64,000 nucleotides of DNA from a virus (taxonomy: Duplodnaviria; Caudoviricetes). Location: positions 7,832 to 71,831 of the IMG/VR virus record IMGVR_UViG_3300012952_003947. One strand, given 5' to 3'. Positions 2,884-48,167 of this stretch are shown in pieces. Within the stretch, counting starts at the first letter, position 1, and every line of letters starts with the position of its first letter. The position numbers and the translations under genes were made by a program. Below the pieces are notes generated by a model. That model was not told the DNA's origin, did not search any database, and saw only the letters and a program-made list of their open reading frames with translations.

Positions 2884-3840
2884 TTAGCAAGCGCCATCTG
2901 ATTTAAGTTTAATAAATCTCACAGGGATATCAATCCTATAGCCCGTTGTAGCTCCAGTTACTCTGACGTTTGAGTCGATATAGTAAAAGCAATCATTTTG
3001 AATTGTAGCAGTGCTACCAAGCTTAGTAAATAATGTTGTGCTGGTATTTAAATCAAGGGAAGATTGGATCTTGAACCTCAAGCTAGAGCCTCGGGGGCCG
3101 GAGATTGTCTGTGTACCGTCATCTGTGGATACATTGTCGTTGTTGCTAACATATCCAGGGTTAGTTGTAAGGGATAGGTAGTAACTAGCAATATTGTCGT
3201 CATCAATAAATGATACCGGGGCCAAGCCGGCGCCGGCTGGTGTGTGAATGCTACCAAGACGATTATCTATTTCAATAATATATTGCTGCTCGACCAAATC
3301 AGAATCTAATTGGAACGCGGCTGGGATATCCGAAGTATCCAAACCTTGGTCAATTCGAATGAGCGAGCCTCCGTCTGTGTCAGAAGAGGGGTTCTCGCCG
3401 GCAAGGACACCGTTTCGGCTAGCCATTGTTGTTGTGGACGCCGCAGAGGATGTCGCTTTTTCTGAATCTTCGTCAACCGCAACAAGGAATGTTTCTGATG
3501 ACCCATCAATTAGGTACATTTCAGTGTTCGCGGCTTGTTTATTTAATTTTAATACGGGAAGGTATAAGAGATTTGTGCGAGGAATTGAAATAAGCTTCGA
3601 TTTCATTGTAGATGTGTTATTTGTAAACGCCTCAAATACGGGTGTTTGCAACACTTCTAGATCAAAATACGCACTACCCGATGCATGATCCCGATTATAT
3701 TTGGTGTAATCGACCTCATCATCGCCAAGTGCAAACTTTACAATCCTAAAGGATCCATCGCCTTTTGCCAATCTAAAACGTCCAGTATCAGTTAATACTG
3801 CGTCAAGTATAATGTCTCCGCTATTATCTAAAAAAGCCAT
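2884..3840 (-). CDS. conserved large-phage virion structural protein
   Basis: N-terminus MAFLDNSGDIILDAVLTDTGRFRLAKGDGSFRIVKFALGDDEVDY, a motif I recognise from large aquatic myophage structural genes; SD-like GGGAG upstream. Confidence 0.55.
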   Translation of the reverse strand: MAFLDNSGDIILDAVLTDTGRFRLAKGDGSFRIVKFALGDDEVDYTKYNRDHASGSAYFDLEVLQTPVFEAFTNNTSTMKSKLISIPRTNLLYLPVLKLNKQAANTEMYLIDGSSETFLVAVDEDSEKATSSAASTTTMASRNGVLAGENPSSDTDGGSLIRIDQGLDTSDIPAAFQLDSDLVEQQYIIEIDNRLGSIHTPAGAGLAPVSFIDDDNIASYYLSLTTNPGYVSNNDNVSTDDGTQTISGPRGSSLRFKIQSSLDLNTSTTLFTKLGSTATIQNDCFYYIDSNVRVTGATTGYRIDIPVRFIKLKSDGAC

Positions 3841-3870
3841 AACTCTTTTTTCTCCCAGGGTGGTCTCCCT

Positions 3871-3879
3871 ATAATTAGT
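3871..3879 (-). promoter_or_regulatory. candidate phage late promoter ACTAATTAT
   Basis: In one of the few intergenic gaps, about 30 nt upstream of the ATG at 3840; similar CTA(A/T/G)TTA elements precede 25318, 62586 and 62665. Confidence 0.4.
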
Positions 3880-3917
3880 ATATTATTTTAAATAATTTCC
3901 TTTTTATATTATAACAG

Positions 3918-6900
3918 TTAGCATTTCTTTGTTAAATCATCAGATGTTTTTTCTAAATTAAGTTTTTCTTTAAAAGTCACATTTAAATCTAACTTTCTTC
4001 CTGTCTTTTTTGAAGTAATTCTAAATTTAAAGGATTTGTTTAATGAAGACTGGTTCTCTAAACCTAGCACTGGTACCGTATCATAAGCAGAATCGATTCG
4101 TTTTTTGCCGCCGCCGGGCGTGGTCTCGTCAAAGACCGACTTGTCATCATTAAATAAGAGATGAGTTACGGCTGGCTTGATATATAAATATTTTTTGAAC
4201 TGCTTCTCGCTTTGCCGGCCAGCTTGTTCATTCTTTTTCTTCATCTCTAAAAAGTCTATTATTCTAATAACTGGATATGATACTTCTGAATTTTTTACCA
4301 TTTCCAATTCATACACCGCTGTCGGATTCGAACGATGGCCATGTATATCTTGTGTTCTAAAAGTGTAATAATATTTTCTATTTGGCTCGATGTCGTCAAT
4401 AAAAGTTGATCTACAATCAGCGCGGAGAGATGCAATACTTTTTCCTAAGAAGTCTGAATATGACTCAGGTCTACGATCAATTCTAAAAACTTCAAACCGA
4501 GTTACTAAATCGTCACTCTTAAAGACAATCGGAGGAGGATTTTTTACAAAGTTGTCATAGGTTAAATCGGGATAGAGCGTCTTTACATAATCGAACACTC
4601 TTCCTAATTCGCCACCCGTCTCTTCAGATAATCTATTACCAAAGAACATAGATAGTTCTGGTATTGCAGTATATTCTCCAACCTCTGCTTGCAGGGCTAT
4701 TAATATCTTGTTATCTACGTTACGATAGGGTACCATATCTACGCCGGGAGGTACTGGCGGTCTGTCTTGTATAATCGTAAAATCTCTGCTTATATGATAA
4801 TCCGTCTCAAACAAAAGCAATTCAGGCTCGGTAACTACAAAAACATCTACACCAGTATCCTGACCGCCAGTATTGGTTGGGCCTACGCCCATCTCATTAT
4901 CGGCTTTATCCGCCGGCGCTAGATATCTATACTTTGTTGCGACAACCAACTGCCATGCGTATATATTATATTTATATTTCTTACCATACAAAACTTGAGT
5001 ATCTACAAATTTGATTACGTCAATCTCTGAGGAATTCGTAAACCAAAAATTTTGCACTACTCTTCCGGTTTCATCGAGTTTTTCTACTCTATAAAATACT
5101 GTTTCGCTGTGAGCCCTTTTGCCAGAAATTATGTCTTTATAAGTGCGGCTTCTATTTTTCACTAAATTATTTATCTGTGCTTTAAAGCCTAATCCATAAA
5201 TTTTATTAATAAAAGGATTTGAAATGTCATCATTTTTAAAACTATCATCACCACCCAATTCAATGGTTCTACTCTCAAGATCTCCATTTGTTAGAGGATA
5301 TTGTGTCCAAAAATTAAAAACTTCTGCTTTAAACCATTTATCTAGACATAAAACTTTATTACGTTTTGTAAATATTTTATTTTGAGTCTGCTCGACTGAT
5401 GTATCAAAATCATGTAATAGTAATCTTTTTTCTTTAATTCTATTAAGAGTGTCAAATAAGAAATTTGGTTTTAGTATGTTTCTTAGTTGTTCTTGTTCCT
5501 CCTCATAGTTATATACCTCTTCAGTTTCCTCCATCGTTGTTGCCTGTGATAGACCAGTATCATATAGTGGTTCGTCGTCCGGGCCTAGTGTGGAGGAAAT
5601 GCTTTCTTGAGCCTCATCAAGAGTCCCGGGTGTTGCAGCCTGTTCAAGAGGCATCGTACTAACTGCCATTACTGATTTCAGTAAAGCATTTTTTAACCCA
5701 TGTTGTTCTAGGAGGTCAGCAAACTGCGTCATAGTGTCAGTGGAAAACTCTACGGTATTTTGCATAGGAAAAGTTTCTTTATATGTTTCGACGTCTGATA
5801 ACTGCTTTACCGTTTTTAGAGGAAAGACAACATTCGAAAACTCCCTAGCTGTTGATCCTACTGGATTTTCTGTTAGCTTTTCAAATTCAGGCTCCTCGCC
5901 TATTAATCCAGCGCCAACCGCGACTTTATTAATGGTTTTTCCCCAGTTTTTAAAATAATCACCCTTCATTTTAAACAATTCAATGTTAGCCATTGGATTT
6001 TGCAAATTTTGAGTTAAAGATATGTGTTTTAAATACGATCGATCAACAAGTTCGCGGCCCAGAACTTGACCCATAGAAACACCACCTTTTCGGCTTTCAT
6101 TTAAAGCAAGGTGGATATACATGTTTGGCAAAACGCGCTCTGGCATATAAAATTTATTTAAGTCGGCGCCGGAACCATGAATAGCCATAGTAGGGATAGC
6201 TCTTTCGTACTCCTCAACACGATAATTGTATTCTGATTCTACGTTGACGTATTTTAGTTTTCTAAGATCCGTCGATATGCTTGATTTTAAATATGGAACA
6301 TCGTATTGAGTCGAAAAATCTCTAAAATATTTTAACGGCTTAAGATCATCCGGAGCCAGCGCGCCTAGGCCATCGTTAATTGGTCGTCCACCTGGGACCA
6401 GACCATGACCACCCATGGCCGGAAATATATTTAATTTTTCAATTTCATAGTTATCGGGGCCATCTAAATCTGAATCTTTGTTTTTTTGATTTAAATAGGC
6501 TTTCTGGAAGTCGTTTGAATCATTGAAAACGTTTTTTGTTCCACCAAAGTGCAGGTCAGGATTGATTGGAAAAATGTTAATTTTTTCGTGTTTTTGGCCC
6601 CAGAGGGAGGCGGTATCGGCGGAGACTTTCGAGCCTAGGCCCAATGAGAGGGATTCAAAAGTGCTAGATTCTTTTAAAATTTCTATTTCAAAAGGGAATT
6701 TTCCTTGATCCAAAGATATATTAAATTCTAGCTTACCCTGGCTGGACTCCGAATAATCGCCCTGAGTTCCATAAAGCGCGCCGAAGGGGTTGGGCGCTCT
6801 ACCTAGGCCAAAACCAGAGTCACTAAAAAACTTGCCAGCATTAATACGAATAAAATCATAATAATATCTGCCGACACCAAGCTCACTATCTTGCTTTAAT

Positions 6901-7070
6901 TGAGTCTCTGTGCCCTCTATTTCATAACCGAACTGACCTTCTCGAATTTCAGTTTGCGTAACTCCTCTAGTTGTTTCTAAATCGTACCTGCCTGCAGCAT
7001 TGTAATCTTCAACAAAGACTACTTTTTCTTTATCTACGGTTACTGGTATTTTAATATATTTTAAAGTCAT
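3918..7070 (-). CDS. large hypothetical virion protein, possible FN3-like domains
   Basis: 1050 aa ORF coupled to neighbour by TAATG overlap at 7070; YGKKYKYNIYAW and KYYYTFRTQDIHGHRS resemble FN3 beta-strand motifs. Confidence 0.5.
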   Translation of the reverse strand: MTLKYIKIPVTVDKEKVVFVEDYNAAGRYDLETTRGVTQTEIREGQFGYEIEGTETQLKQDSELGVGRYYYDFIRINAGKFFSDSGFGLGRAPNPFGALYGTQGDYSESSQGKLEFNISLDQGKFPFEIEILKESSTFESLSLGLGSKVSADTASLWGQKHEKINIFPINPDLHFGGTKNVFNDSNDFQKAYLNQKNKDSDLDGPDNYEIEKLNIFPAMGGHGLVPGGRPINDGLGALAPDDLKPLKYFRDFSTQYDVPYLKSSISTDLRKLKYVNVESEYNYRVEEYERAIPTMAIHGSGADLNKFYMPERVLPNMYIHLALNESRKGGVSMGQVLGRELVDRSYLKHISLTQNLQNPMANIELFKMKGDYFKNWGKTINKVAVGAGLIGEEPEFEKLTENPVGSTAREFSNVVFPLKTVKQLSDVETYKETFPMQNTVEFSTDTMTQFADLLEQHGLKNALLKSVMAVSTMPLEQAATPGTLDEAQESISSTLGPDDEPLYDTGLSQATTMEETEEVYNYEEEQEQLRNILKPNFLFDTLNRIKEKRLLLHDFDTSVEQTQNKIFTKRNKVLCLDKWFKAEVFNFWTQYPLTNGDLESRTIELGGDDSFKNDDISNPFINKIYGLGFKAQINNLVKNRSRTYKDIISGKRAHSETVFYRVEKLDETGRVVQNFWFTNSSEIDVIKFVDTQVLYGKKYKYNIYAWQLVVATKYRYLAPADKADNEMGVGPTNTGGQDTGVDVFVVTEPELLLFETDYHISRDFTIIQDRPPVPPGVDMVPYRNVDNKILIALQAEVGEYTAIPELSMFFGNRLSEETGGELGRVFDYVKTLYPDLTYDNFVKNPPPIVFKSDDLVTRFEVFRIDRRPESYSDFLGKSIASLRADCRSTFIDDIEPNRKYYYTFRTQDIHGHRSNPTAVYELEMVKNSEVSYPVIRIIDFLEMKKKNEQAGRQSEKQFKKYLYIKPAVTHLLFNDDKSVFDETTPGGGKKRIDSAYDTVPVLGLENQSSLNKSFKFRITSKKTGRKLDLNVTFKEKLNLEKTSDDLTKKC

Positions 7071-10000
7071 TATTGGTACTTCTTATCTTTAGACTCGGAC
7101 TTCTGATTTTTAGACTCGGAGCCGCCGATATTAGCTAGATTGCTGACATATTCTTCGTGACTACTGCAGGGCATATATAGAACAACGCCGGCATATTCTT
7201 TGTATTCGTTAGTCAATGTGTGACTATGGAACGATCCGTTGCATTTTAATTCATAACTTCTTTTCTGGGCTTGCTCCGGAGTTATATAAATATCATGTTT
7301 GGGGTCTAGCTTTAATATTTTCTTTGCTTTATCTAAATCTATTTTACTTAAATCTTTTTCTTCTTCTAAAGTCAACTGTGGTTGTATATCTTGATTAATT
7401 TCTTCGCCGGCTTCTAACAAGAAATATTCATTATAAATAGGTAATTCAAAATTTTCATTTTTTGCCAACCCAAGAAGCTTGTTCTCGTAACGACGGATGC
7501 GACACAAAGTAGTTCCAGCCAGGGCTCCATAGTTAGAAGTAGTTAGATCTAGCCACGTTGGACTAGAATCTTTTAATTCGTGTAAATATTCAACTTTTAC
7601 AATGTTGCCGTAATTAAGCCAGAAGGCTCCGTAGTGCTCCAAGTCGCCAACAATATCTAACAAAGGATCATGCATACCTGTTTCTCTAATATTTTCTCTT
7701 TTTTGTTCATATGAGTCAAACATTAAAGTCTTTATTTGATTAGGCAAGCTTTTAAGGCGACCTCTTAAAAGTAATTTTGCTATTGCCGCCTTATCTGTGG
7801 CGTCGCTTACAGAGTCCTTAACTGCACTAAGAACACTTTTTTCAGGGTTGAAGCTATAATATGAAGATCGAACAATCTCATTTAGTAAATTATTTTTTAA
7901 CACTTTACTGCCGAGCATCGCAAATAACAATGAAGAGGGGTCACTATTTAAACCCTCATCGCCGACAGTAGACTCATAAGGGTCAAAAGTTTTTTGGTCT
8001 TTTGTTTGGCCTTGCAGATTTGATTCTTTTTGTTGATCCGCCTCTTTTATACCTTTGCCCTTATCTGATTGAGATGTGTTTTTATTCTCCTTTAAAGCAT
8101 CTGTTAACACCGCTAATGCTGAGCTTACGCTTTTGCCTACGTGCGTCCCATCTTTTGTGGCCAATTCTAATAATTGTTTCTTTATTAATTGTTGATTAGC
8201 ATTTAATTTTGAGTTAGGATTTTCTAATATATTGTCATTTGGCAGCTTGCCTAGTAGATTATAATACATAATTTTTAGCATTATTTGTTGAACTAGGAAC
8301 CTTTTTTGTTCATTGTTTATATATTCAATTGTGCCATTCTTAAATAAGTTTAAGGTTGAGTATCCTTTATCATGAAACCTAACCCTAGACGGTGTTAAAT
8401 ATGTAAATTTTTCACTGTCCGGACTGTCATTAGCAACAACCGGAAATGTTTCGCCACTTAATGTAACAGACATATCAACTGGAGCTTCTAAATCATTAAA
8501 ATATTTTAACAATTCGTGATTTGTTCTCTCGACCAGTCCAGACGCCTGAACATGTCTAAGCCCCATACTATGTCTCAAGGGAAATACTGCCGGAGAGCCG
8601 GCAGGGCCGTCAGGAACTCCTGCAAGATAATCGTAGCCTACGAAGTAGGGGGTGCTGTGGTCATTAATAACAGGTAGTGCAAAGTTAATTTTTATACGAC
8701 CTTTGTCAGAATTTATCTTAGAATTTGATTTACTATTACCAGTATGGTCATAATTATTCTGTGCCATGCCCACTTTGTTTCTAGTTAGCTGACCATCTAA
8801 GGTAGAGTCGCCGGCTAAGGGCATATTTACTCCTGATATTTTAGACGCCTCCGCTATAACAGTATCTAAAACGGAAATTAATGCCTTTAATGCTTCCGGA
8901 GTACTTCCAGCTTTTATCTCAGCTAGTTTTGCTAGTTTCTCAGATTGTTCTACCACTGATCTGCCGGCTTGGATATTTGCGTTAAGATCGTTACGAGAGA
9001 TCACGGGAGACATAACTAATAAAATTTTAAGTTCTTTATAAGCTTCTGCTGCAGCAGATACTTCAGGATTGTAAGTTACGGGCTCGGCGGTGTCGCGAGT
9101 CTCTTTCCAGACTGCGTACTCCTCCCTGTTCATGTCTCTTTCCAAGCCTGTCTGCTCGTCTATTACTTTGGGCGCCACTGACTGTACTTCTGGTCTAGGT
9201 CTGCTATTTAGATACTCAGTGCTATAAGAATTATTTTTAATATTAAAGTTTGGTACTTTCTTTACTCTAGTGGTACGTATTCTTTTGGCGCGGTTATCAA
9301 TTAATTCACCAACGCGGCCTCGAATAGGGCGATTAATATGTTTGGGAATCGGGGTGGCATGAGGATCTTTTTCTGTCGCAATTTTATAATCAGATTGGGT
9401 AAAGCCTTCGGAAGCCTCTAAGTACAACTTTTTCAAAACATCGTTTGCTTTAATTGCTTTTACTAATTTTTTTCCAACCAGGATGGGCGAATAATCAGAA
9501 ATTTCTAATTCTAAGTCATAAACATATTGACCTAAGCCGAAATCGCTAGTGGATGTATTTTTTGATAATTTATTTTGTGAAAGGGCGCCGGCATCTGTAA
9601 ACATAAAACTTCTACGAAATATATTTTTTAAACTAAGATTTCCTAATTGTAATTCTTCATTAACAGTTTCTTGCTTTTTTAAAACGATGTTTTTTTCTTT
9701 TATGCCAGAGGGCACTCCTTCATCCGAAAATCTTGCGATCATGGCTGGAGGGTCTTCTTTATCAAAATCTTCAGCTTCTCTATTTAATACTCCCGCCTCA
9801 TTTGTCATATTGTTTGGTTTAATGCGACGACGGTGAATGGTCATGTTTTTAATTTTTGCCATCCGGGCTACTTCTTCTACAAGCTCTCTCCAGTCGGAAT
9901 TATATAAACCATAAACTGACTTGATAAGAGAATTTTCACTTAATATTTTATACATATCTAGCGAATAAAAGACTGCTGCACCTTGATTAAAATTGTTGTC

Positions 10001-11164
10001 CGGTTCATAATGAGAGATAACAGCATAAGCATAGTTGCTCTTTTTATTTTGCTCAAAAAAGTTACTGCTGTATCCTAAATTATTCAAGTTCGCAGATTTT
10101 TCAATTAAGCCGGCTGATTCATAAACTTTAAACGATTGCAAATTTTCAACTATAGGGTTGTGTCTAAAGTCCTGAACTTTATCACTAACAAGCTCATTTG
10201 CAAAAACAATCTCATATAACACAGAGCCAAGCTCGGAATCCCATCCATCGTCTGTATCTGTAAATGTATAGGAATTCATCTTAATATCATCCTCAGATAT
10301 GCTTCCAAGACCAGATGTTGCATACTCACTTAGTGCTGCAGCCATTTCTTTTATATCAAGATAAGATACTACAAAGTAACTTAAATGCTTTGGATCTGAA
10401 GATTGTACGTCAAACGTGACACTTGGAGTGCCCGAAGAGGGAACTGGAACTTTATATATTCTTTCTCCGTTTGAATCTAAGTAACTATTCATTCTCTGTA
10501 AGTGTTGCAAGAGATTTTTTGACGCATCGATATCAGGATTTGTCATAGAGAATCGTTGTGTGACGTGCTTGCGGGATCCCAAATCTGTTACCAATACTCT
10601 ATCTTTATCAAAAGCCTCAGAGGCTGGGAGTAGGGAAGGGTCATTCATAGCAATAGCAAATGGAAGCAGCTTATTTGATAACATTCTTTCTGTATGGCTT
10701 TCAACAGTCGATTGAATTACTGCAATTTTAACAAAATCAACCAGCCTAGACATTCCTTTTTCGTTGGTCATACCACCAAAGAAGGACGCAGCTACACTGT
10801 TGCCTCTGTCGGAAACAGTTTCCATTACTTCACAAAATATGCTAGATTTAAGATTAAGGGCTGAAGCTTCGGAGATTCGACCGGCGCCAGAGGACTGTCC
10901 TAGGAATTTATTTTGTAATCTCTCCAGTCCTTCCGCAGATTTTGCTATATTGTCCTTTCCAACAGAACCTTTTGTTATGAAAGAATGATAACTTTTAGAA
11001 AATCCGCTTGCTTTAGGCGGTTGCCATGACGGATGAACACCGTTAATATGTGGGTTAGTGTTACCAGAAAAAACATTAGAGCCGCCCGTCTCTAAGACAA
11101 TTTTGGAAAGCTCAACCTTTGGAATGAATCTTTTTAATAATTCTTTTTTGGTCATTTTAGCCAT
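7070..11164 (-). CDS. large hypothetical (probably virion) protein
   Basis: ~1364 aa ORF; ATG at 11164 overlaps the upstream TAA (TAATG), preferred over the tracked start at 11170; no motif recognised. Confidence 0.55.
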   Translation of the reverse strand: MAKMTKKELLKRFIPKVELSKIVLETGGSNVFSGNTNPHINGVHPSWQPPKASGFSKSYHSFITKGSVGKDNIAKSAEGLERLQNKFLGQSSGAGRISEASALNLKSSIFCEVMETVSDRGNSVAASFFGGMTNEKGMSRLVDFVKIAVIQSTVESHTERMLSNKLLPFAIAMNDPSLLPASEAFDKDRVLVTDLGSRKHVTQRFSMTNPDIDASKNLLQHLQRMNSYLDSNGERIYKVPVPSSGTPSVTFDVQSSDPKHLSYFVVSYLDIKEMAAALSEYATSGLGSISEDDIKMNSYTFTDTDDGWDSELGSVLYEIVFANELVSDKVQDFRHNPIVENLQSFKVYESAGLIEKSANLNNLGYSSNFFEQNKKSNYAYAVISHYEPDNNFNQGAAVFYSLDMYKILSENSLIKSVYGLYNSDWRELVEEVARMAKIKNMTIHRRRIKPNNMTNEAGVLNREAEDFDKEDPPAMIARFSDEGVPSGIKEKNIVLKKQETVNEELQLGNLSLKNIFRRSFMFTDAGALSQNKLSKNTSTSDFGLGQYVYDLELEISDYSPILVGKKLVKAIKANDVLKKLYLEASEGFTQSDYKIATEKDPHATPIPKHINRPIRGRVGELIDNRAKRIRTTRVKKVPNFNIKNNSYSTEYLNSRPRPEVQSVAPKVIDEQTGLERDMNREEYAVWKETRDTAEPVTYNPEVSAAAEAYKELKILLVMSPVISRNDLNANIQAGRSVVEQSEKLAKLAEIKAGSTPEALKALISVLDTVIAEASKISGVNMPLAGDSTLDGQLTRNKVGMAQNNYDHTGNSKSNSKINSDKGRIKINFALPVINDHSTPYFVGYDYLAGVPDGPAGSPAVFPLRHSMGLRHVQASGLVERTNHELLKYFNDLEAPVDMSVTLSGETFPVVANDSPDSEKFTYLTPSRVRFHDKGYSTLNLFKNGTIEYINNEQKRFLVQQIMLKIMYYNLLGKLPNDNILENPNSKLNANQQLIKKQLLELATKDGTHVGKSVSSALAVLTDALKENKNTSQSDKGKGIKEADQQKESNLQGQTKDQKTFDPYESTVGDEGLNSDPSSLLFAMLGSKVLKNNLLNEIVRSSYYSFNPEKSVLSAVKDSVSDATDKAAIAKLLLRGRLKSLPNQIKTLMFDSYEQKRENIRETGMHDPLLDIVGDLEHYGAFWLNYGNIVKVEYLHELKDSSPTWLDLTTSNYGALAGTTLCRIRRYENKLLGLAKNENFELPIYNEYFLLEAGEEINQDIQPQLTLEEEKDLSKIDLDKAKKILKLDPKHDIYITPEQAQKRSYELKCNGSFHSHTLTNEYKEYAGVVLYMPCSSHEEYVSNLANIGGSESKNQKSESKDKKYQ

Positions 11165-12258
11165 TAACAAGTCTCCTCATTAGGCCCAGAGGGGATTGCA
11201 TAAATGTTTTCTGCCTCATCAGCATCAGATGTAGGTAAGGCGTCGTCCGGACATTCAAATAATTCTTCGTCCAGATACGGATCTTCTCTTTTATCTTTAT
11301 TTCTTGCTGCACAAAAGGCTTCAACGCTAATTTCTCCATCAAACAAAAAATCAAAAAAGTATTCAACATAATTAGGTGTTAATAAAGAACTTTTTGTGCT
11401 TGGCTTGTCATCAGTCAAAATACCATCTTTTACGTTATTAAACTCTTCCTGAAAATATATTTTTTCTAATTCATCGTCCTCGCCAATTTTAAACACTTCA
11501 ACGTCAAAGTTTTCCGATAGAAACTCAGTATTTTTTTCTTTTAATTCTAACAAAATATAATTGTCTTTTACAACTAATACTGTTCCGTCATTAAAAAAAT
11601 CACTTCTTATCGTTCCGTCGTCCAAATCGTTGCCGTGCTCTGTTAAACTAACAAAGCTATTCATTCTCTCGCTCTGTGGGACGCCTCCGGGATCACCGTC
11701 TTCATCAGGAAAATCATATTGCTCAACGCCAATTTCAATTTCTACTTCTGTTGCTAATTGAGGTATCCTATCGACCAAACCAGCAGTGGAGCCGGTATAG
11801 GTTGTAGATATATTTGCGTGATCTAGTTCGCCATTTAAATATAGCACGCTCCAGGCGGGAGCATATCTAGAATTCAACTTTGAGGTACCGATTGATTTCA
11901 TTCGGATGTCTCTATCCATCTCTAGAGTATTAAATTCTATTTGCTCATCATCTTCGTAAGCGGCCCAAGATTGGCCGCTAGAAAGTACGCCAGAGCTAAC
12001 AAGTTTCTTTTTTATAACTTTTTTTTGTTCAATATTACTAAAATTATATTGAGTTGACAACCGTGGTGTTTTATTTAAAATTCTATTTTCTGTTTCACTC
12101 TGGTCTTCAACAAAGTTAGCATAATTCGAATCATACAACACGTCATCATCATAAAAAGCATAAAATTCAGGCTTAAACTTTCCCAAAGAAAGCAGACGCT
12201 TTCCATGTTGAGTTAGCTGAATATCTAGTACTTGTTCTTTTTTATCTAAAAATTTCAT
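11164..12258 (-). CDS. virion structural protein, distant paralog of 2884-3840
   Basis: N-terminus MKFLDKKEQVLDIQLTQHGKRLLSLGKFKPEFYAFYDDDVLYD aligns by eye with 2884-3840; acidic C-terminus. Confidence 0.5.
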   Translation of the reverse strand: MKFLDKKEQVLDIQLTQHGKRLLSLGKFKPEFYAFYDDDVLYDSNYANFVEDQSETENRILNKTPRLSTQYNFSNIEQKKVIKKKLVSSGVLSSGQSWAAYEDDEQIEFNTLEMDRDIRMKSIGTSKLNSRYAPAWSVLYLNGELDHANISTTYTGSTAGLVDRIPQLATEVEIEIGVEQYDFPDEDGDPGGVPQSERMNSFVSLTEHGNDLDDGTIRSDFFNDGTVLVVKDNYILLELKEKNTEFLSENFDVEVFKIGEDDELEKIYFQEEFNNVKDGILTDDKPSTKSSLLTPNYVEYFFDFLFDGEISVEAFCAARNKDKREDPYLDEELFECPDDALPTSDADEAENIYAIPSGPNEETC

Positions 12259-12260
12259 AG

Positions 12261-15200
12261 CTATCGACGCTCACCTTCTGACACTTTTGTCAATCGTGTT
12301 GAAGGTTTTTCGCTCCGTTGTATTTGCGTTATATCTTGATTTTTCCCTGGGGGTATTTTCACCGTACCCTCTTCTTCATTAAATTGTTCTTTACTGATTG
12401 CGCTTTGTGGTATAAACGGTGCGTCTGGACCTATTGATATACCTGCATCAAGTTTAACTAATTCAACGAGAGAGAAATAATCATAAGGCCAGTTATAACT
12501 GTAATCTGGTTCTTTCTCTTTATTTCCTACTTGGAACTTGAATCTATCATCGTCTCTTGAATCTGCTGTTAGATTATAGTAGCTACGTTCAGCTTTCTTT
12601 TTAATCTTAAAGATCATCCAATGTATTTCCTCGCCGGCGTCATCTTTGAAGGGAGGTAATCCGTGGAAAAACTCATGCTTTCCAGTAGGATGAGATACAA
12701 CAACTTCTTCTTTTTCAGCAGTCATCGCAATCTCTGGCATTAAGTTTTGCCAAATATCAGACAAATCATCTTTATCCAGAGTATGCGTAAACTCAAAAAT
12801 ATACATTACAAATGGAGTTTTTGTTTTATATTTTAAGAAGTCAAAATTAGGTGGTACAACATATCGATTCATTAATTTGATCATGTCAGAAATAGAAGTA
12901 TCTTGTATGTCTTCTTTAGCTCCAAAGTCCCCTCTTTGAACCGCAGGTTTACCATTGGTAATATTTTCAAGCTGTTTCTTATAAATGCCAGGAAGAATCT
13001 TAAAGAAATGCTTAGAACCAAAAGTATTCACTGTAAAGTTGGTCTTCTTTTTTGAGAAAGGAATTGCTACAACAGCTTCTGAAATTTCTTTTTCGTCCGC
13101 AACTTCGCCAACTCTTTGACTGCCCGGGTTAAATCCACAAACATTGATCAAAGATCCGGTTGTAGTTTGAGAGGGGTCTAATAGTTGCACGGGATGACTT
13201 TCTTCAATGTCTAGAAACAATCCTGTCCCTTCGCCTGGAATGTTGCCGTATCCATTCCAGATACTTCTTACAAATCTTGCGTCTTTGTCTGGGTCACCAT
13301 GAGTACCAGATACATCTAGAACTGGACATTCCCACTTTGTACCAATAGACCAAACGTCGAAAGCAGAAGTATCGCTATCAGTGATAGAAGTTGGTACGTA
13401 CTGGCCTTCCGAATCTGTTTGTGACGAATATGTAACTTTTTTAACCCTAGTTTTGCCTAATAAATTAACAGAGGAGCTTAATTGCATACAATTTTGTACT
13501 GGTAGGCTGTTACCATGCACGGAGCCTGTAGCTGTTCCGGCTACGGTATCTAAATACGGATTTTTATTAAAATAAGTTACTTCGGCGCCGGCCAGGATTT
13601 CATCAAGACTAAACACGGCAGAGGCGCCAGTGTCCATAGGGTTGTCATCGCCATAGACGCCGGAATCATGAGGAGAGAATGAAATTCTCGCTACAGAATC
13701 CCCATAAAAATAAGGTGGTGTCCAAGCAGAGTGGTTAATAAAACTATTTAAAAGGTTATAAGCATCAGAGGTAACACCTTCGGCGACGCCGCCTATGTTC
13801 GCAGTAAAGTGCGGAGTATCTAGAGTCCAAGTACCTTCTTCTAAAATATGCTGATGGGCTAGAGATACGGTCAGGTCAGCCCAGGTTCCAGACAAGGCCG
13901 GGCCATATATGCTCCCTCTCCTATCACCCCAGTGCGGAGATATTCTGTTAAAATAGCCTGTTTGTTGATTTCTGTTTCCAACAGGCCCTTCACTTATTAC
14001 AAGGTCTTTTGTTCTTCTTAATACAACATCCATGTAATAAACTGTGCCAGAGACCATCGGTTTAAAATCTTTTTCCGCTGCAGAGAACGCTGACGTTAAT
14101 TTGCCATTTTTTAAGAAAAATCTAGGTACTTCTGCTAAGAAATTGTGCGAGGCCATTGGGAAACTAGGCTTAAAGCTTCCGTTCCAGTCAAAAAATACAT
14201 CCTGGGCGGGATCTGACGCATCCGCATCAGCGCTAAACAGAGATAAAAATGTGGCATCAGCTAAGGACGGATCAGACGTTCTGGTGGTCCTATACGCGGG
14301 GCTAGTTTCAACAAAGTGAATCGCGGATTGGCCGTCAGACGAGGAGATTGGTATATAATTTTTAAAATCTACCAAGGCTTCAAACGGAAGTCTATAGTTT
14401 GGTGCTTCTGTTAAAGCTGACATTTCAAAACTTGTAAAAGAAGCACCAATTAATCCTGATTGCCCTTCTGGGGCTGACCCTTTATACACGGGATAATCAA
14501 CCGCAATACCCGACTTAATTGAATTAAAAAATACTCCCGGGGCCATTAGCGGCTGAAGTAGAGCATTTAATCTCTGTGCGCCAAAATCATATGTAGGCGC
14601 CCAGCTAGTTGAATTAGTTCCGTTAAAATACGCAGATCCTGTTGATTTAGACCCACCGATAAACGGACCTAGAGATTGAGATAATAGCGAACCCAATTGA
14701 ACTGACCTTAGTGCAGGGTAAAATCCATTATAAGGCAATAATTTTTTAACTCCGGAACATTTTAATGTAATACGAGACACTGCTGTATCTGAGTGATCTT
14801 CTTGAATCATATTAAAATATTTAAGAAAATCACTGTGAGAATACGTATCATAAAAATCATCATCCAGGCGCGAAGTGCGGTTCGGGCCGGCGCTGGCTGT
14901 GATGTTTCCGCCATCAAGCATAAACAGCATATTGTTTTTAGCTCTAAAGTTTCCTCCTCGCTCATTCATATAAAAATCAATATGATCAGAAATTCTAAAC
15001 TCTGGTACGATAGAATGATCTTGTCCAATAACACGAATATCTGAAGCGTAGTCTTCATAATTATTAAACCAAGGACTCTTGCCTCTGACATCATGAGCAT
15101 AGTATGGTTTCATTTTTCCTGGTACGGCAAAAGGTTCCCATATGGAGGCTGTGAGTGTGGGGTTATCATATCCTGTAACAAGATATGTTGAACCAGTGCC

Positions 15201-21854: not shown

Positions 21855-21863
21855 TTTTGACTA

Positions 21864-25318: not shown

Positions 25319-25352
25319 CGATATGTTCTCCGGAGGGACAGTTCTCTACACA

Positions 25353-25361: not shown

Positions 25362-25761
25362 TCATTAAATCAGAATTTATTTCTAAAACGTCAATATCTC
25401 CGGTTGGTTTGATAACATATTTCAATTGTATTCTTAAACCGTTAGCATTGTCTGGGTCTGCTGGAGTTCCTTTGTGGAAGGAAAGCTCTTCAATACTAAC
25501 AAAGGGAAGGTATTTATCTACTTGAGAAAATATTCTCCCCTCGATGACCGAATGTACACGCTCCATATTCGGTTCAAACAAGAAATTTCTTAATCCTACT
25601 CCAAAAGTTGGATCCATCATTTTTTCTCCAGGGCAAGTTAAAATTAGATGTTTTAAATTTTGAGCAACAGCTTCTTTAATTGTTTTGTTTAGTCCAAAAG
25701 CTGGATCTACGTCATCATTTCTGACTGGCAATTGTGGTGATATTCCATATCCGCAAGACAT
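25357..25761 (-). CDS. baseplate wedge protein, gp25/GPW-like
   Basis: AVAQNLKHLILTCPGEKMMDPTFGVGLRNFLFEP is the gp25 family signature; adjacent to gp6-like gene. Confidence 0.9.
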   Translation of the reverse strand: MSCGYGISPQLPVRNDDVDPAFGLNKTIKEAVAQNLKHLILTCPGEKMMDPTFGVGLRNFLFEPNMERVHSVIEGRIFSQVDKYLPFVSIEELSFHKGTPADPDNANGLRIQLKYVIKPTGDIDVLEINSDLMI

Positions 25762-32330: not shown

Positions 32331-32341
32331 TCTAGCATACC

Positions 32342-33283: not shown

Positions 33284-33295
33284 AAAACAACCTCA

Positions 33296-36855: not shown

Positions 36856-36858
36856 TTT

Positions 36859-38630: not shown

Positions 38631-38631
38631 T

Positions 38632-39495
38632 TTACACCCTTACTAAAAAATCTGCAACCGGCTTTTTGTGCTCAGGCAAATTATCATATTGTTGTTGTTT
38701 AATTTTAAATAAATTTTCATGTACTCCGGGTCTGCCGCCTTGAAGCTCTGGGTGTATGACGAAATTTAACGTGAGCATCGTTCTTTCTTGTTTAACAGGC
38801 TTTGTGCCTCGATGATATGACGTAGTAAACCCTGTTAAGAGATCTCCCTTCTTTGCAGTTAAATACATTAAAGAATCTTCTCCGTATAGATTTTTCATCT
38901 CATCTTCTGACCATCTGTGTCTCACTTGGTGATCCAGCGGCATCTTGTTCCAACTATCTCTTATTAAAGTGAGTGGCCCGTCTTCGGGAGAATCTACATC
39001 ATTCAAATACATAAAAAATTTAAAAAATTTAATACTGTTTTTGTCTCTATGAAAAAGTTGTGTAGTAGTGGGAGGCAAATCATTTAAAAAGCTTTTTCTT
39101 AAATTAAATGTTCCAATCGCCGGCATACATTTAAAGTACTCTTTGGCAAAATTAACAAGCGGATCGCTAAAAGCTATTTGCTGCACCTCGTCGCTAACTA
39201 AAAATGGGTTTGCAACAGTGGCATAGTGGCTATCAATAGATTTTAAGTCCACATTATTTTTTATGCAGAAATCAACCTTATCTTTTATAGTGTCTAAAAG
39301 ATCATGGTCTATTGCTTGTTCCCATTTGGTAAAACCGTTAGTCTTTAAATCTTCAATTTTTTCATCATACTCGCCAGTTAATTCGATAGGATATTTCTCT
39401 TTCCTCTCCAAAAACTGCTTATTATAATATTCTACAGCAGCTTGGCCGCCGTTATAAAAACCAACACTATCCGGTTCGAACCAATAATTATTCAC
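38632..39495 (-). CDS. 2OG-Fe(II) dioxygenase, PhyH-like
   Basis: FHRD...FFMYLNDV...GPL...GD...HRG...RTML (HxD...H...R). Confidence 0.8.
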   Translation of the reverse strand: MNNYWFEPDSVGFYNGGQAAVEYYNKQFLERKEKYPIELTGEYDEKIEDLKTNGFTKWEQAIDHDLLDTIKDKVDFCIKNNVDLKSIDSHYATVANPFLVSDEVQQIAFSDPLVNFAKEYFKCMPAIGTFNLRKSFLNDLPPTTTQLFHRDKNSIKFFKFFMYLNDVDSPEDGPLTLIRDSWNKMPLDHQVRHRWSEDEMKNLYGEDSLMYLTAKKGDLLTGFTTSYHRGTKPVKQERTMLTLNFVIHPELQGGRPGVHENLFKIKQQQYDNLPEHKKPVADFLVRV

Positions 39496-40222
39496 TTTCT
39501 TTTGGCTCCATTATTGCTAGTAGCGCTGGAGATTGTACGCCTTCTTCGATTTTTAGAATATTAAAATATCTTGAGGCTATAGATTCAAAAGATTTTTTTG
39601 AAAAGTAGTGTGTGTGTCCGTCATAATTATCTATTGTTGGATCAACCAATTTTCTTTTTCGGCCTTTGCCAGACAAGGAAATTAATAAAGGAATTTCAAT
39701 AATACAACGTTTTAATGCTAGCTGGGACATTTTCTTAAGAAAGTTTTCTATATCCTCAACATGTTCTAACACATGCCACGCTGAAATTACATCATAACTT
39801 TTAGAAGTTTCTAGTTTTAGAAAGTCTTCCTCGTAAGTGGTAAACCCTAATTTTTTACACTCGCTTATCAGTGATGGGTCCAATTCTGTGCATTCAATAC
39901 TGTCTACTTTATCCTGCAAATGTTTTGCAAATGTTCCCGCGCCGGCGCCGATATCTAACCAAGAATATTTTTCATTCAAATATTGATCGATCATTTCAAC
40001 TCTTTTGGAACAAATATCTTTTCTTTTCTCGTGAAATAATTCTGTAACATTGCCTTCAGCGTCTATCTCGGCATGGTCCCTTCGCTCAATAGTTCTATAT
40101 TGCTCTTGGTGGTACTTTACGCTATCCCCAGGGTATATCCTATGTATGTGACCGCAAGTATCACACTTTAATGTGTTTTGGTACACATTTTTATACTCAG
40201 ATCCACAGCAATGACATTTCAT
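39488..40222 (-). CDS. class I SAM-dependent methyltransferase with N-terminal zinc ribbon
   Basis: CHCC/CDTC cysteine pairs; LDIGAGAGTF motif I; YDVISAWHVLEH. Confidence 0.85.
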   Translation of the reverse strand: MKCHCCGSEYKNVYQNTLKCDTCGHIHRIYPGDSVKYHQEQYRTIERRDHAEIDAEGNVTELFHEKRKDICSKRVEMIDQYLNEKYSWLDIGAGAGTFAKHLQDKVDSIECTELDPSLISECKKLGFTTYEEDFLKLETSKSYDVISAWHVLEHVEDIENFLKKMSQLALKRCIIEIPLLISLSGKGRKRKLVDPTIDNYDGHTHYFSKKSFESIASRYFNILKIEEGVQSPALLAIMEPKESE

Positions 40223-41064
40223 TTTTTAGTAACTCCGATAAACTCAGGATCTACAAAAGTGTCAACATGATAATTTGTACCAGTATGTTTCCTTGAAATG
40301 TAAGGTCTAATTCTTTTTATTGTTGGTTTTACCATAAATGTTAATACATCTCTCGTTTTTTCTTCACAAAACGTAGCTCTGTGAATGATGTTATTATCAA
40401 ATATTATAGCAGTTCCTGCAGGTCCTGTTAATTTTTTTGGTTCATAGCCAGAGCCAATTAAACTTTCAATTTGATCATTAGAAAATCTACTCGGATCCCA
40501 AATAGGAGGACAAGCCTCGATCCATCGAATATGGTCAATTCTAGTTGTAAAAGCTTTATGGCCATGGTTGTTTTTTGATAAAACTTGGAAGGCGCCGTTT
40601 TGCTCTTCAACATCATCTAGATATATCATTATTTTAATGATTTCTTTTGGATGATTATCCATATGCCAGGAAAGAGAACCAACAGACTTTTCATCGTAAT
40701 TGCCAGTTTTTGTCCTATACGCATATACTGCCATGGCCTGAACATTACAATTAAATACAGTCTTTTCTACTTCTGGTAGAATAATTTCTGCTAATTCTTC
40801 TATTCTCGGAATATCCCACGGATTCTTATACCGCAGGAGAGGTTGATTTTTTATATCAACTCCGGAGGGAGTAAATATTTTTTTCGGATTTTTATATTCT
40901 TTATCTAAAAAATTTTTAATTTCATTTATAATATTCAAATAATCCGAATTGAAATGGCTTGGGTCAACCGCGCGGTACGTAAAATCATACAGACTTTGAT
41001 TTAGCCGAGTTCTATTTTCATAAGTTTCCTTACATAGTTCATAGTATTGTTCATAGGTTAACAT
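40219..41064 (-). CDS. 2OG-Fe(II) dioxygenase, PhyH-like
   Basis: WHMDNHP...IMIYLDDV...GPAGTAIIFDNNIIHRAT...RDVL. Confidence 0.8.
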   Translation of the reverse strand: MLTYEQYYELCKETYENRTRLNQSLYDFTYRAVDPSHFNSDYLNIINEIKNFLDKEYKNPKKIFTPSGVDIKNQPLLRYKNPWDIPRIEELAEIILPEVEKTVFNCNVQAMAVYAYRTKTGNYDEKSVGSLSWHMDNHPKEIIKIMIYLDDVEEQNGAFQVLSKNNHGHKAFTTRIDHIRWIEACPPIWDPSRFSNDQIESLIGSGYEPKKLTGPAGTAIIFDNNIIHRATFCEEKTRDVLTFMVKPTIKRIRPYISRKHTGTNYHVDTFVDPEFIGVTKK

Positions 41065-41065
41065 T

Positions 41066-41917: not shown

Positions 41918-41927
41918 TTGCCTGCCT

Positions 41928-43870: not shown

Positions 43871-43871
43871 T

Positions 43872-45461: not shown

Positions 45462-45462
45462 G

Positions 45463-46092
45463 TTATTCTAGCTCCTTCAAAATCAATACTAAAGCATCTT
45501 TTGCACATGAATTTTCTTCACTTGCAATTAATCTATCTTCCACTATCTGTCTAGCTTTTTTTACATTTATTTCTGACCAATCTCCATGATCATAGCTTCC
45601 TTCAAAAAGACGTAAATCATCACACACTATTATAGCTTCATTTTTAAAATTATCATTAATAATTTGTAGTTCTTCATATAAAGGAACATCTTTTTCTCTA
45701 CTAGATCTTCCAGTCTTAACACCATTCCAATCTGCAGAATAATGACCGTCTAAGTAAAATATTGCTGGCTTATTTACTATTTTGCAAACTTCTTTAAGCT
45801 TTTCTTGTGAGTCTCCCAGTATAAAATTTATCTTATTGCTGGCGTCATAAAACGGATTCTCTAGACTATTAACAAAATTTACAGAATTATTATAAATTTC
45901 TTCGACAATTTCTATTGTATATAACTGCTCAAAATACGGAGACATGTGAAAAATAGTGGGTATTCTTAGTTTTCCTGTTTTTGGTATTTTTACAGGCTGA
46001 TATGTGCCTGTTTCTATAAATACTCTAGGACATTTTAAATTATAGCTAGCCAGCAAAGTGTCAATTACGCTCTTATTTAAATTTCCGCCCAT
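45463..46092 (-). CDS. putative class I SAM-dependent methyltransferase
   Basis: VFIETGTY, YTIEI, ILGDS, IFYLDGH, IVCDDLR pattern. Confidence 0.65.
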   Translation of the reverse strand: MGGNLNKSVIDTLLASYNLKCPRVFIETGTYQPVKIPKTGKLRIPTIFHMSPYFEQLYTIEIVEEIYNNSVNFVNSLENPFYDASNKINFILGDSQEKLKEVCKIVNKPAIFYLDGHYSADWNGVKTGRSSREKDVPLYEELQIINDNFKNEAIIVCDDLRLFEGSYDHGDWSEINVKKARQIVEDRLIASEENSCAKDALVLILKELE

Positions 46093-47094
46093 TTACCCTT
46101 CCATCTCCACCTGTTGTTTAACCCACTCATATGTTTTTTGCATCCCGACAACAAGAGATTGTGAATAATCCCATCCTAACATTTTTCTAATAAGAGAATT
46201 ATCGGAATTCCTACCCATAACACCAATCGGACATCTAAAGCCATACTTATCTTCAAATTCCTTGCCTTGAATATTATATATTGTCAAGGATTTGCCAGAG
46301 ACAGAAGCTGCCATTTTTGCAAAATCGTTAATAGATATCATCTCTTCAGATCCGATGTTTACAGGCCCTGTAAAATCTGAATCCATCAGCCTTCTTGTCG
46401 CCTCGATACACTCATCAATATATAAAAATGATCTTGTTTGTTTCCCATCTCCCCAAACTTCAATCTGCCCATCTAACGGAGCTTCGGCAGCTTTTCTGCA
46501 TAGTGCTGCAGGTGCTTTCTCTCGGCCTCCTGTCCAGGTGCCTTCGGGACCAAATATATTATGATATCTAGCAATGCTTACATTTAAATTATGATTTCTT
46601 GCGAAAGCAAAATAAAGCCTCTCACTAAATAATTTTTCCCAACCATATTCTGAATCTGGATTTGCGGGATAAACGGTGTCTTCGCTACAGGTTGGATTAT
46701 CTGGATCTAGCTGGTTATGTTCCGGATATACACATGCAGAAGAAGAATAGAATATTTTCTTTACTTTATTTTTAACACACTGCTCTAAAATATTGAGATT
46801 GATCATAACAGAATTATGCATAATATCTGCGTCATTCTTACCAGTAAAAATAAAACCGGCGCCTCCCATATCAGCAGCAAATTGATAAACTTCATCAATG
46901 TCTCTAGTAACCGCAGAGCAAATAGTCCCGCTTCTTAAGTCGCCGGGGACAAATTCATCCGCTATTTCTGTGATATCAAAAAAATCATGCTTTTTAATAT
47001 CTACGGCGCGGACCCAGTGGCCTTCCTGTTTTAACCTTTTTACCATAGCTCCGCCGATGAATCCGCCGGCCCCACAAACCAAAATTCTTTTCAT
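46093..47094 (-). CDS. GDP-mannose 3,5-epimerase-like NAD-dependent epimerase
   Basis: GAGGFIG, AADMGGAGFI, YSSSACVYP, YGWEK, GTWTGGREKAPAALCRK, WGDGKQTRSF, GRNSDN match GME signatures. Confidence 0.85.
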   Translation of the reverse strand: MKRILVCGAGGFIGGAMVKRLKQEGHWVRAVDIKKHDFFDITEIADEFVPGDLRSGTICSAVTRDIDEVYQFAADMGGAGFIFTGKNDADIMHNSVMINLNILEQCVKNKVKKIFYSSSACVYPEHNQLDPDNPTCSEDTVYPANPDSEYGWEKLFSERLYFAFARNHNLNVSIARYHNIFGPEGTWTGGREKAPAALCRKAAEAPLDGQIEVWGDGKQTRSFLYIDECIEATRRLMDSDFTGPVNIGSEEMISINDFAKMAASVSGKSLTIYNIQGKEFEDKYGFRCPIGVMGRNSDNSLIRKMLGWDYSQSLVVGMQKTYEWVKQQVEMEG

Positions 47095-48167
47095 TTTATT
47101 ACCTCTTTAATTTTACTAGGGAGGGGATAATGATTATAAAATAAATCTGTCAAAACGTTAAACTCTACACCTTCACCTAAATTATAAAAATCAAAATTCA
47201 AAGCTTCACTTAATTCCAACAGATATTCCCAAAAAATTATCATCTGTCTTTCTTGAAAATCATCACCGTGTTGTTTATACCAATTTGGTATTTTTTTGTT
47301 TCCATCAAAGGCATGCAACAAATTACCATTTTCTTCGACTTTTGAGCGGCCATCGAGGCCAACTATATATATATCTTTAAATCCCATAAAAGCTGCATAA
47401 GTTATAAGTCTGGGGCCTATTCCAAGAGCAGAATTATACCTCGTGGCAAAGAACGCAGTGTTTTGGGGATATTTTTTATAAAATTTTCTTACTTTTTTAT
47501 AAGAAGGCTCGTTGCTTATTAAGTTTCCTCTCTCTAGTTCAAAACATGCTATCGTCTTATTTTGTTCCATCAAAGAAGTAAACTCTACTGTATTGTTATA
47601 ATCAAATACACCCTCCACAATAGCTGTCAGATCTACATTTTTATTTTTTAATTTTTCATTTTTATAAAACTCATTACACGACCATATCTGATCGAAGCTC
47701 ATTTTTTCCCAAGATACTTCATTAACAGAGGGTCCACCGCAAACTATTAAAACAGATTTGCCGTCGTTATTAACACTTTTTTCATGGATGGAAAAAACCA
47801 ATTCAGAACCAAGAATTTTATAATCTTTTAAATCTCCAAACTTAAATTTTTCAATGATATGTTGATAATAAGATTTACTCCATCTAACGCCCTTTTCAAT
47901 CGAATCAACGGCAATATTAAAATGTGCATCCTTGCCGGCATTAGTTTTACGATATTGATATCTACTAAAACACTTATTATTTTTTTCGTCTAACCATATA
48001 CTTCCATCTTTTGATAATGGATAATCCTTTATATATTGTGTAACAAGATCTTTGTGTTCTGTAGATAAGTTTGACAAGATCGTGTTTTTTTCATAAACAA
48101 TAGTATAATGCTTCGTGTTAAAGCCTAATTTTAACTTATTTTTCATAAAGCTTTTCAAACATCTCAA
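47091..48167 (-). CDS. CstII/GT42-like sialyl(nonulosonyl)transferase with extra N-terminal domain
   Basis: LIVCGGPS...DQIWSCNEFY and AAFMGFKDIYIVGLDG parallel the CstII GNGPS...CNQFY and ALGYKEIYLSGID motifs. Confidence 0.6.
   Translation of the reverse strand: MRCLKSFMKNKLKLGFNTKHYTIVYEKNTILSNLSTEHKDLVTQYIKDYPLSKDGSIWLDEKNNKCFSRYQYRKTNAGKDAHFNIAVDSIEKGVRWSKSYYQHIIEKFKFGDLKDYKILGSELVFSIHEKSVNNDGKSVLIVCGGPSVNEVSWEKMSFDQIWSCNEFYKNEKLKNKNVDLTAIVEGVFDYNNTVEFTSLMEQNKTIACFELERGNLISNEPSYKKVRKFYKKYPQNTAFFATRYNSALGIGPRLITYAAFMGFKDIYIVGLDGRSKVEENGNLLHAFDGNKKIPNWYKQHGDDFQERQMIIFWEYLLELSEALNFDFYNLGEGVEFNVLTDLFYNHYPLPSKIKEVIK

Follow-up and report, generated by a model that had tools for sequence, protein, structure and literature searches.

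The stretch of DNA analysed here (the window; 64,000 nucleotides) comprises bases 7832-71831 of a linear 71,831-bp virus record in IMG/VR (IMGVR_UViG_3300012952_003947), whose completeness is about 40% according to CheckV, the full genome being about 180 kb. Two 6-bp palindromes, GCCGGC and GGCGCC, are in excess throughout this DNA of 37.0% GC, and this excess is the subject of the present study. The results showed that the excess is real and beyond chance under every null model tried. It is a genome-wide compositional signature that lies almost wholly at synonymous codon positions, with no discrete element behind it. The bias is shared family-wide, and the copies are not a set of functional sites.

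Nearly all genes of the window are encoded on the minus strand. A T4-type baseplate wedge gene (gp6-like) is located at 23519-25318 and is flanked by giant open reading frames (ORFs) of 3197, 2189, 1366, and 1050 amino acids (aa), and a 25-kb glycan-biosynthesis cluster comes after this structural block. Marine metagenomes, Tara included, contain more than 6,700 homologues of the baseplate protein, and the closest cultured phages share only about 33% identity with it. DNA nearly identical to window positions 7070-11170 (46-96% of sampled 31-mers) was present in runs of seawater and marine metagenomes drawn from 14 or more studies (2014-2025), with a divergence among runs of at most 2.5%, which indicates that the phage is widespread. 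Together, the baseplate homologues, the low identity to cultured phages, and the wide occurrence in seawater indicate that the window is part of the genome of a T4-like marine myovirus that is abundant and uncultured. A peptide-pattern search of viral and metagenome contigs found no close relatives of the window, and the nearest locus (L001) is 55% identical to it in the baseplate protein.

The window contains 30 copies of GCCGGC and 18 of GGCGCC, while 2.6 of each would be expected from base composition and 3.6 under a first-order Markov model. The hand counts and coordinates given in an earlier reading of this DNA, made from the letters alone (the sequence-only reading), were exact. Some of the words overlap, with the composite GCCGGCGCC present twice and GGCGCCGGC four times. 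All copies are listed below by ORF; frame 0 means that the word is read as GCC-GGC (Ala-Gly) or GGC-GCC (Gly-Ala).

2884-3840, minus strand, ORF: GCCGGC at 3226, 3232, and 3397 and GGCGCC at 3229, all in frame 0; the tandem GCCGGCGCCGGC within 3226-3402 codes for Ala-Gly-Ala-Gly.
3918-7070, ORF: GCCGGC at 4214 (phase 1, GGC-CGG-C) and 4912 (phase 2, GCG-CCG-GCG), two of the four out-of-frame GCCGGC; GGCGCC at 6165 in frame 0.
7070-11170, ORF of 1366 aa: GCCGGC at 7187, 7406, 8597, 8810, 8963, 9587, and 10109, all in frame 0 and occupying 7 of the 12 Ala-Gly dipeptides of this ORF; GGCGCC at 9171 (phase 2), 9584, and 10883 (both frame 0).
12261-21854, ORF of 3197 aa with a Laminin_G_3 domain: GCCGGC at 12633, 13587, 14886, 15261, and 16242 in frame 0; GGCGCC at 13584, 13623, 15663, and 17244 in frame 0 and at 14596 in phase 2.
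21864-23519, ORF: GGCGCC at 23352 in frame 0.
23519-25318, baseplate wedge (gp6-like) ORF: GGCGCC at 23969 and GCCGGC at 24527 and 24914, in frame 0.
25761-32330, ORF of 2189 aa: GCCGGC at 25941, 26928, 26979, 28779, and 30213 in frame 0 and at 26866 in phase 2; GGCGCC at 26607 and 26976 in frame 0.
38632-39495, ORF in the glycan cluster: GCCGGC at 39119 in phase 2.
39488-40222, Methyltransf_23 ORF: GCCGGC at 39941 and GGCGCC at 39944 in frame 0, within the S-adenosylmethionine-binding motif LDIGAGAG.
40219-41064, ORF in the glycan cluster: GGCGCC at 40591 in frame 0.
42429, pyruvyl transferase ORF in the glycan cluster: GCCGGC in frame 0.
46858, glycan cluster: GGCGCC in frame 0.
47065, epimerase ORF, at the Rossmann motif GAGGFIG: GCCGGC in frame 0.
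47934, glycan cluster: GCCGGC in frame 0.
52421-52426, in ORF 51736-52947: the last GGCGCC, in phase 2 (TTG-GCG-CCA), outside the span covered by the sequence-only reading.

The null-model tests were run on the whole 71.8-kb contig, which contains 35 GCCGGC and 20 GGCGCC. Synonymous shuffling, either pooled or within each gene, gave 9.9-10.9 copies of GCCGGC (z about 8) and 6.8-7.4 of GGCGCC (z about 5). When the shuffle also kept dinucleotides, in addition to protein and codon usage, the expectations were 11.9-14.5 and 7.8-8.4, and the observed counts were reached in 0 of 500 shuffles; the excess thus outlives the very null against which the sequence-only reading had staked it. When each codon was conditioned on the GC content at third codon positions (GC3) of its four neighbours in both directions, the contig had 31 GCC-GGC against 7.9 expected and 17 GGC-GCC against 6.2. 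Among all 4096 hexamers GCCGGC ranks first for over-representation under the null that keeps dinucleotides, and the magnitude of the excess is about 11-fold over base composition and about 3-fold over the codon null, with a combined density of 0.77 sites per kb for the two words. Local shuffles in windows of 20-50 codons were discounted, because they leave too few synonymous partners and nearly reproduce the data.

The excess was seen in both genome compartments, the structural block and the glycan cluster, the latter alone showing 5 GCCGGC against 2.4 expected and 4 GGCGCC against 0.9. Beyond 48 kb there are few Ala-Gly or Gly-Ala dipeptides and GC3 is lower, which accounts for the near-absence of sites there. 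Site spacing is mildly clustered (coefficient of variation 1.49 versus 1.16, P about 0.04), partly owing to the composite GCCGGCGCC sites. Regional GC3 heterogeneity or GC-rich mosaic patches were rejected as a cause, since the autocorrelation of C at third positions is limited to distance 1 and to Ala/Gly codons. Short GC3-rich runs do exist, but conditioning on flanking GC3 shifts the expectation just from 7.5 to 7.9. An origin of the words in a repeated element or in paralogous repeats was likewise rejected, as the contexts of all sites differ.

The copies are strongly bound to the reading frame. In the window, 26 of the 30 GCCGGC (87%) are read as GCC-GGC and 15 of the 18 GGCGCC as GGC-GCC. 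The sequence-only reading had argued that the sites fall in different codon phases and so reflect more than Ala-Gly, and the examples it chose at 4214 and 4912 proved to be two of just four exceptions, so this argument does not hold. A frame-resolved null on the contig gave, for frame 0, 31 GCC-GGC against 8.8 expected, 17 GGC-GCC against 6.0, and 22 of the non-palindromic GGC-GGC against 11.4; out-of-frame copies (GCCGGC 4 versus 2.9, GGCGCC 3 versus 1.5) were not significantly enriched. In the codon-pair table, GCC-GGC was the most over-represented pair of the genome (31 versus 7.6) and GGC-GCC the fourth (17 versus 5.8), with GGC-GGC at 22 versus 10.6. When flanking GC3 was fixed, the enrichment in the window was 3.9-fold for GCC-GGC, 2.7-fold for GGC-GCC, 2.0-fold for GGC-GGC, and 1.0-fold for GCC-GCC (3 versus 3.1), and the corresponding values in 24 relatives rich in the two words were 2.8-, 2.5-, 1.7-, and 1.6-fold. 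These results demonstrated that Gly and Ala codons ending in C are coupled in a frame-bound manner, which we refer to as layer 1. In this layer, neighbouring Gly and Ala codons couple their third bases, with GGC and GCC adjoining more often than their separate usage predicts. Layer 1 follows the reading frame and accounts for the 87% of copies that are read in frame as Ala-Gly or Gly-Ala. The signal of the window is mostly this in-frame codon-pair effect plus a modest palindrome-specific surplus, and caution is needed not to take it for free-standing sites. As to codon usage, GGC makes up 36% of Gly codons in this 37% GC genome, which is double what the C-ending codons of other four-fold families reach (GCC 18%, CCC 15%, ACC 15%, GTC 14%), and no tRNA genes were found in the window.

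A palindrome-specific surplus was found on top of this coupling. In the window, with flanking GC3 fixed, the two palindromic pairs reached 48 copies against 14.1 expected (3.4-fold) and the two non-palindromic pairs 25 against 14.3 (1.75-fold), a difference with a chi-square of about 7.6 and p of about 0.006. The spread of z-scores was 1.81 for palindromic hexamers versus 1.06 for other hexamers, with both tails heavy. For the relatives we used 80 IMG/VR loci of uncultured marine myoviruses (1.16 Mb in total; baseplate protein 46-55% identical to that of the window), and their frame test was split-half, each locus being classed on one half and measured on the other. In frame 1 the rich relatives had 11 GCCGGC against 4.6 expected and 15 GGCGCC against 5.9, whereas non-palindromic control words matched for the central codons were depleted (GGCGGC 0 versus 2.6, GCCGCC 7 versus 12.7). 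Furthermore, the bases flanking the hexamers were complementary more often than expected in the rich relatives (102 versus 80.6 and 93 versus 70.4; within-locus permutation, P<=0.0015). The effect persisted after removal of composite sites and C..G flanks, and no such complementarity was seen around the non-palindromic cores GGCGGC and GCCGCC. Since one of the flanking bases is a first codon position, no decoding mechanism predicts it. Other palindromes were also raised across the rich genomes, including CCCGGG (1.8-fold), GGTACC (1.7-fold), and GCTAGC (1.7-fold).

We refer to this surplus as layer 2, which would be a strand-symmetric, DNA-level preference for perfect GC-rich palindromes added on layer 1. 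It would let the two palindromic pairs exceed the two non-palindromic pairs in the window, and in relatives it would surface in frame 1 and as complementary bases beside the hexamer. Layer 2 is demonstrated statistically, and its cause is what we infer. The DNA-level process proposed in the sequence-only reading is thus borne out in part: the palindromic pairs do stand above the non-palindromic ones, more clearly in the relatives, and a frame-bound codon-pair effect, which lifts GGC-GGC as well, makes up another portion of the signal.

The 80 relatives together contained 391 GCCGGC and 320 GGCGCC against 114 expected of each. The distribution on the baseplate tree was patchy, with many clades sharing the excess; the sister locus of the window, L001, had 13 and 15 copies in 14 kb, and another locus (L037) had 22 and 26. 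In a well-supported clade of eight members GCCGGC was present and GGCGCC was at zero in the loci, and five whole records of this clade contained one GGCGCC in 358 kb. Several lineages had neither word, whole records of 145, 100, and 210 kb had no GCCGGC at all, and L041, with none of either word, was nested among rich sisters such as L030 and L045. Purged lineages kept their Gly-Ala and Ala-Gly dipeptides and spelled them with other codons, and GGC-GGC was still enriched about 2-fold in them, which is the signature of restriction avoidance. The pattern among relatives therefore points to putative restriction avoidance, word by word, on a family-wide background of excess. GCCGGC and GGCGCC lead in many separate clades spanning 35-50% GC, a pattern more readily explained by a trait intrinsic to the phage family than by enzymes particular to each host. 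Site positions were not conserved, an uninformative test as the relatives are either identical or synonymously saturated; when two of them are compared, most sites in the first lie opposite another dipeptide in the second. Non-synonymous drive was tried and rejected as a cause, with Ala-Gly and Gly-Ala dipeptides at most about 10% commoner in rich than in purged relatives, which was not significant. Two cultured phages, Flavobacterium phage immuto and Microcystis phage Mel-JY01, showed no excess. In the latter, a distant cultured relative (L092; 140000-189999), GCCGGC was at 0 versus 3.9 expected and GGCGGC at 15 versus 4.0, the palindrome being purged while the non-palindromic Gly-Gly word stays enriched.

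Ten other 6-bp palindromes were at zero copies in the contig, for which the codon null expects 62 in total. These were CAGCTG (15.6 expected), AGGCCT (9.7), GAGCTC (7.5), CGGCCG (6.1), CTCGAG (5.8), CCGCGG (4.4), ACGCGT (4.0), GGGCCC (3.6), GTGCAC (3.4), and CACGTG (2.1). The same set was missing from the structural block and from the glycan cluster. Judged from these counts, the ten absences represent strong multi-site restriction avoidance, and the phage is under restriction pressure, but not at GCCGGC or GGCGCC. Since the glycan cluster agrees with the structural block in its palindrome excess and in the set of palindromes purged, it has presumably been resident long enough to be ameliorated. 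GAGCTC and CTCGAG were nearly absent family-wide too.

Phages are ordinarily expected to avoid palindromes (Rusinov et al. 2018, PMC6286503). The phage of the window resembles that picture in its ten palindromes at zero, as do relatives in which GCCGGC and/or GGCGCC have been purged by lineage, and it departs from it in the opposite sign of these two words, so that two short palindromes are in excess where ten are erased. Our literature search found no paper describing such a palindrome excess in phages. The closest known counterpart is in cyanobacteria, and the comparison with cyanobacterial highly iterated palindromes (HIPs) made in the sequence-only reading was apt: HIP1 gives way to GGCGCC in Calothrix PCC 7103 and to rCCGGy, which includes GCCGGC, in Oscillatoria PCC 10802, and a matching methyltransferase accompanies each of these alternate HIPs (Elhai 2015, PMC4390886). 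The two systems share the same two GC palindromes, an excess of several-fold, a largely coding location, and a density on the order of one per kb, and in both the excess is possibly an epiphenomenon of repair and not a selected function. They differ in that the carrier there is a cyanobacterium and here a phage, and in magnitude, with 15-50-fold there versus about 11-fold over composition or about 3-fold over the codon null here. Moreover, no cognate methyltransferase was detected in the 71.8 kb of the phage and the one-sided intermediates show no enrichment; the two words here rise together, along with CCCGGG and others, and 87% of copies lie in one frame; and the phage relatives flip between excess and complete absence.

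A search of the 71.8 kb (about 40% of the genome) found neither a Vsr nor any DNA methyltransferase of the C5, N4/N6, or Dam type, with no match to PF00145, PF01555, or PF02086, so the methyltransferase search suggested by the sequence-only reading came back empty. A rich relative that is 82% complete (G002) also lacked a C5 methyltransferase (PF00145) and had one N6_N4 enzyme (PF01555) only. Each word has 18 one-off variants, and not one of these was clearly depleted, including the deamination variants (GCTGGC/GCCAGC 0.99, GGTGCC/GGCACC 1.38), and the one-sided intermediates of Elhai's GmeC ratchet were not enriched (ACCGGC/GCCGGT 1.00, GGCGTC/GACGCC 1.14). The excess was drawn equally from all synonymous alternatives, T- and A-ending ones being depleted alike. 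In Escherichia coli, very-short-patch repair (Dcm and Vsr) acts as a repair bias at a methylated word and skews oligonucleotides genome-wide with no selection of sites. The phage differs from this case in its undepleted T-containing variants and in the lack of a detected Vsr or C5 methyltransferase, and repair of the very-short-patch type was rejected because transition variants show no deficit.

These observations can be brought together as follows. A neutral bias of replication or repair would create or retain perfect GC-rich palindromes wherever coding allows, with a HIP-like outcome that involves no selection for functional sites. The bias would be intrinsic to this family of uncultured marine T4-like myoviruses and opposed only by host restriction. 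The host of the window phage evidently would not cut GCCGGC or GGCGCC, so that these words pile up while ten other palindromes are purged, and relatives meeting restriction of the NaeI/NgoMIV type or the NarI/KasI type would have purged one or both words. We therefore favour, tentatively and with a confidence that stops a little short of even, two layers: codon-pair coupling plus a neutral, palindrome-favouring bias that is unopposed here. On the family-level data, a DNA-level palindrome bias with restriction as its counterweight is likely. The stronger form, in which an intrinsic DNA-level process writes perfect GC-rich palindromes at every synonymous opportunity and host restriction erases particular words, is possible but doubtful; such a process might be a bias in replication or repair, or a methylation-linked ratchet on phage DNA that has gone unrecognised. 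The lack of positional conservation, the clustered spacing, the even draw on synonymous alternatives, and the presence of the excess in both compartments argue for a neutral bias over functional sites, and both a methyltransferase-driven HIP process and selected sites seem less likely than a neutral bias.

The explanation that competes most directly with two layers is pure codon-pair (codon-context) bias, in which decoding in the host or phage favours Gly and Ala codons ending in C side by side, no process operates on the DNA itself, and the palindromy is accidental, GCC and GGC being reverse complements. It is an established phenomenon that codon-pair preferences are set by the third base in the P site together with the codon in the A site. 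The effect seen here is likewise frame-bound, synonymous, and dependent on the third base and the identity of the next codon, GGC-GGC shares it, GGC is the favoured Gly codon in spite of 37% GC, the out-of-frame copies of the window are not significantly enriched, and all synonymous alternatives are drawn on equally, as codon-pair selection would do. However, the palindromic pairs exceed the non-palindromic ones, with GCC-GCC in the window showing no enrichment. The relatives have enriched frame-1 copies while matched non-palindromic words are depleted, and their hexamer flanks are complementary beyond chance up to a first codon position. In addition, the pattern nnCGCn is generally avoided in all domains of life, and GGC-GCC belongs to this class, so ordinary codon-pair rules do not predict its excess (Tats et al. 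2008, PMC2585594). We consider codon-pair bias on its own somewhat unlikely.

A HIP-like process with a cognate DNA methyltransferase, of the phage or of its host, would ratchet near-cognates into palindromes through methylation-directed mismatch repair or protection. The two words are the published alternate HIPs, each with its matching methyltransferase (PMC4390886), the density of 0.77 sites per kb is near the saturation of roughly 1 per kb in that model, the family has a symmetric DNA-level component, and the words are tolerated while ten palindromes are purged, as if they were protected. Nevertheless, the enzymes sought were not detected in the contig and the rich relative has no C5 methyltransferase, the predicted intermediates and the deamination variants behave as described above, the same words are at the top in many clades of 35-50% GC with presumably different hosts, and the spacing is irregular; such a process is therefore unlikely in our view. 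As for selected functional sites, a dimeric DNA-binding, packaging, nicking, or modification protein would keep its sites dense. Palindromy and the 8-bp symmetry with flanks in relatives fit the site of a dimeric protein, and the excess is genome-wide. On the other hand, positions lack conservation also at places where the dipeptide could have been retained, whole sister lineages with zero copies indicate that the sites are dispensable, the spacing is clustered and not even, and the window phage has almost no copies outside frame 0. Packaging or binding signals at fixed places, as the sequence-only reading had suggested, do not agree with sites that are mildly clustered and vary in position, and functional sites of any of these kinds are highly improbable.

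Several points also weigh against the two-layer explanation that we favour. As a mechanism for a palindrome bias, strand-switch or template switching on a loop-less 6-bp palindrome is physically doubtful. As for layer 1, GGC-GCC belongs to the usually avoided nnCGCn class (PMC2585594). Within the window, layer 2 rests on one contrast (p about 0.006): its out-of-frame copies in the contig (7 versus 4.4) are not significant, and the flanks in the window are complementary 10 versus 10.6 and 7 versus 5.8 times (total 17 versus 16.4), a comparison of low power. In the relatives, frame 2 shows no excess (about 1.15-fold), and the rich relatives were picked by word counts, with cross-validation applied to the frame test only. 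The cultured T4-like phages S-PM2 and HTVC008M lack the excess, though their expectations are near zero. Finally, a methylation-linked route may be possible, because the enzyme search covered about 40% of the phage genome.

If the DNA-level component is real, this phage family would be a second, smaller, and faster-evolving system for the long-unexplained iterated palindromes of cyanobacteria, a viral counterpart that offers a tractable route to their mechanism. Sister lineages that differ between excess and total absence would let cause and effect be separated, and the palindrome spectrum of each phage would be a two-way record of the restriction systems it has met. For uncultured phages, the presence or absence of 6-bp palindromes could read out the exposure to host restriction. 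The phenomenon is unusual for phages, and the window alone adds little mechanistic leverage.

Other word biases were also observed window-wide. CTAG, which is usually rare in bacteria and their phages, was enriched (229 versus 197, z 5.2), as were CCGG (177 versus 134), GCTAGC (15 versus 7.1), and TCTAGA (41 versus 28.7).

The family contigs L081-L086 lie in metagenome-assembled genomes (MAGs) labelled Gammaproteobacteria, Gemmatimonadota, Maricaulis, Actinomycetes, Flavobacteriales, and Candidatus Pelagibacter sp. TMED166 (a 116-kb contig). This placement is probably a binning artefact, and no host was inferred from it.

The glycan cluster (36859-60961) encodes glycosyltransferases, a sulfotransferase-GT2 fusion, a pyruvyl transferase, an epimerase, a Methyltransf_23 protein, and PhyH-type dioxygenases. 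Compared with the structural block, its GC content is lower (33-36%) and its GC skew much more strongly negative. In the structural block, the giant ORF at 12261-21854 (3197 aa) contains one Laminin_G_3 domain and matches no further family, and the one at 25761-32330 (2189 aa) has no match in Pfam or PHROGs. Both adjoin the gp6-like baseplate wedge gene, as giant virion structural genes adjoin gp6 in Synechococcus phage S-PM2, and the layout of the window is like the gp25/gp6/giant structural gene layout of that phage.

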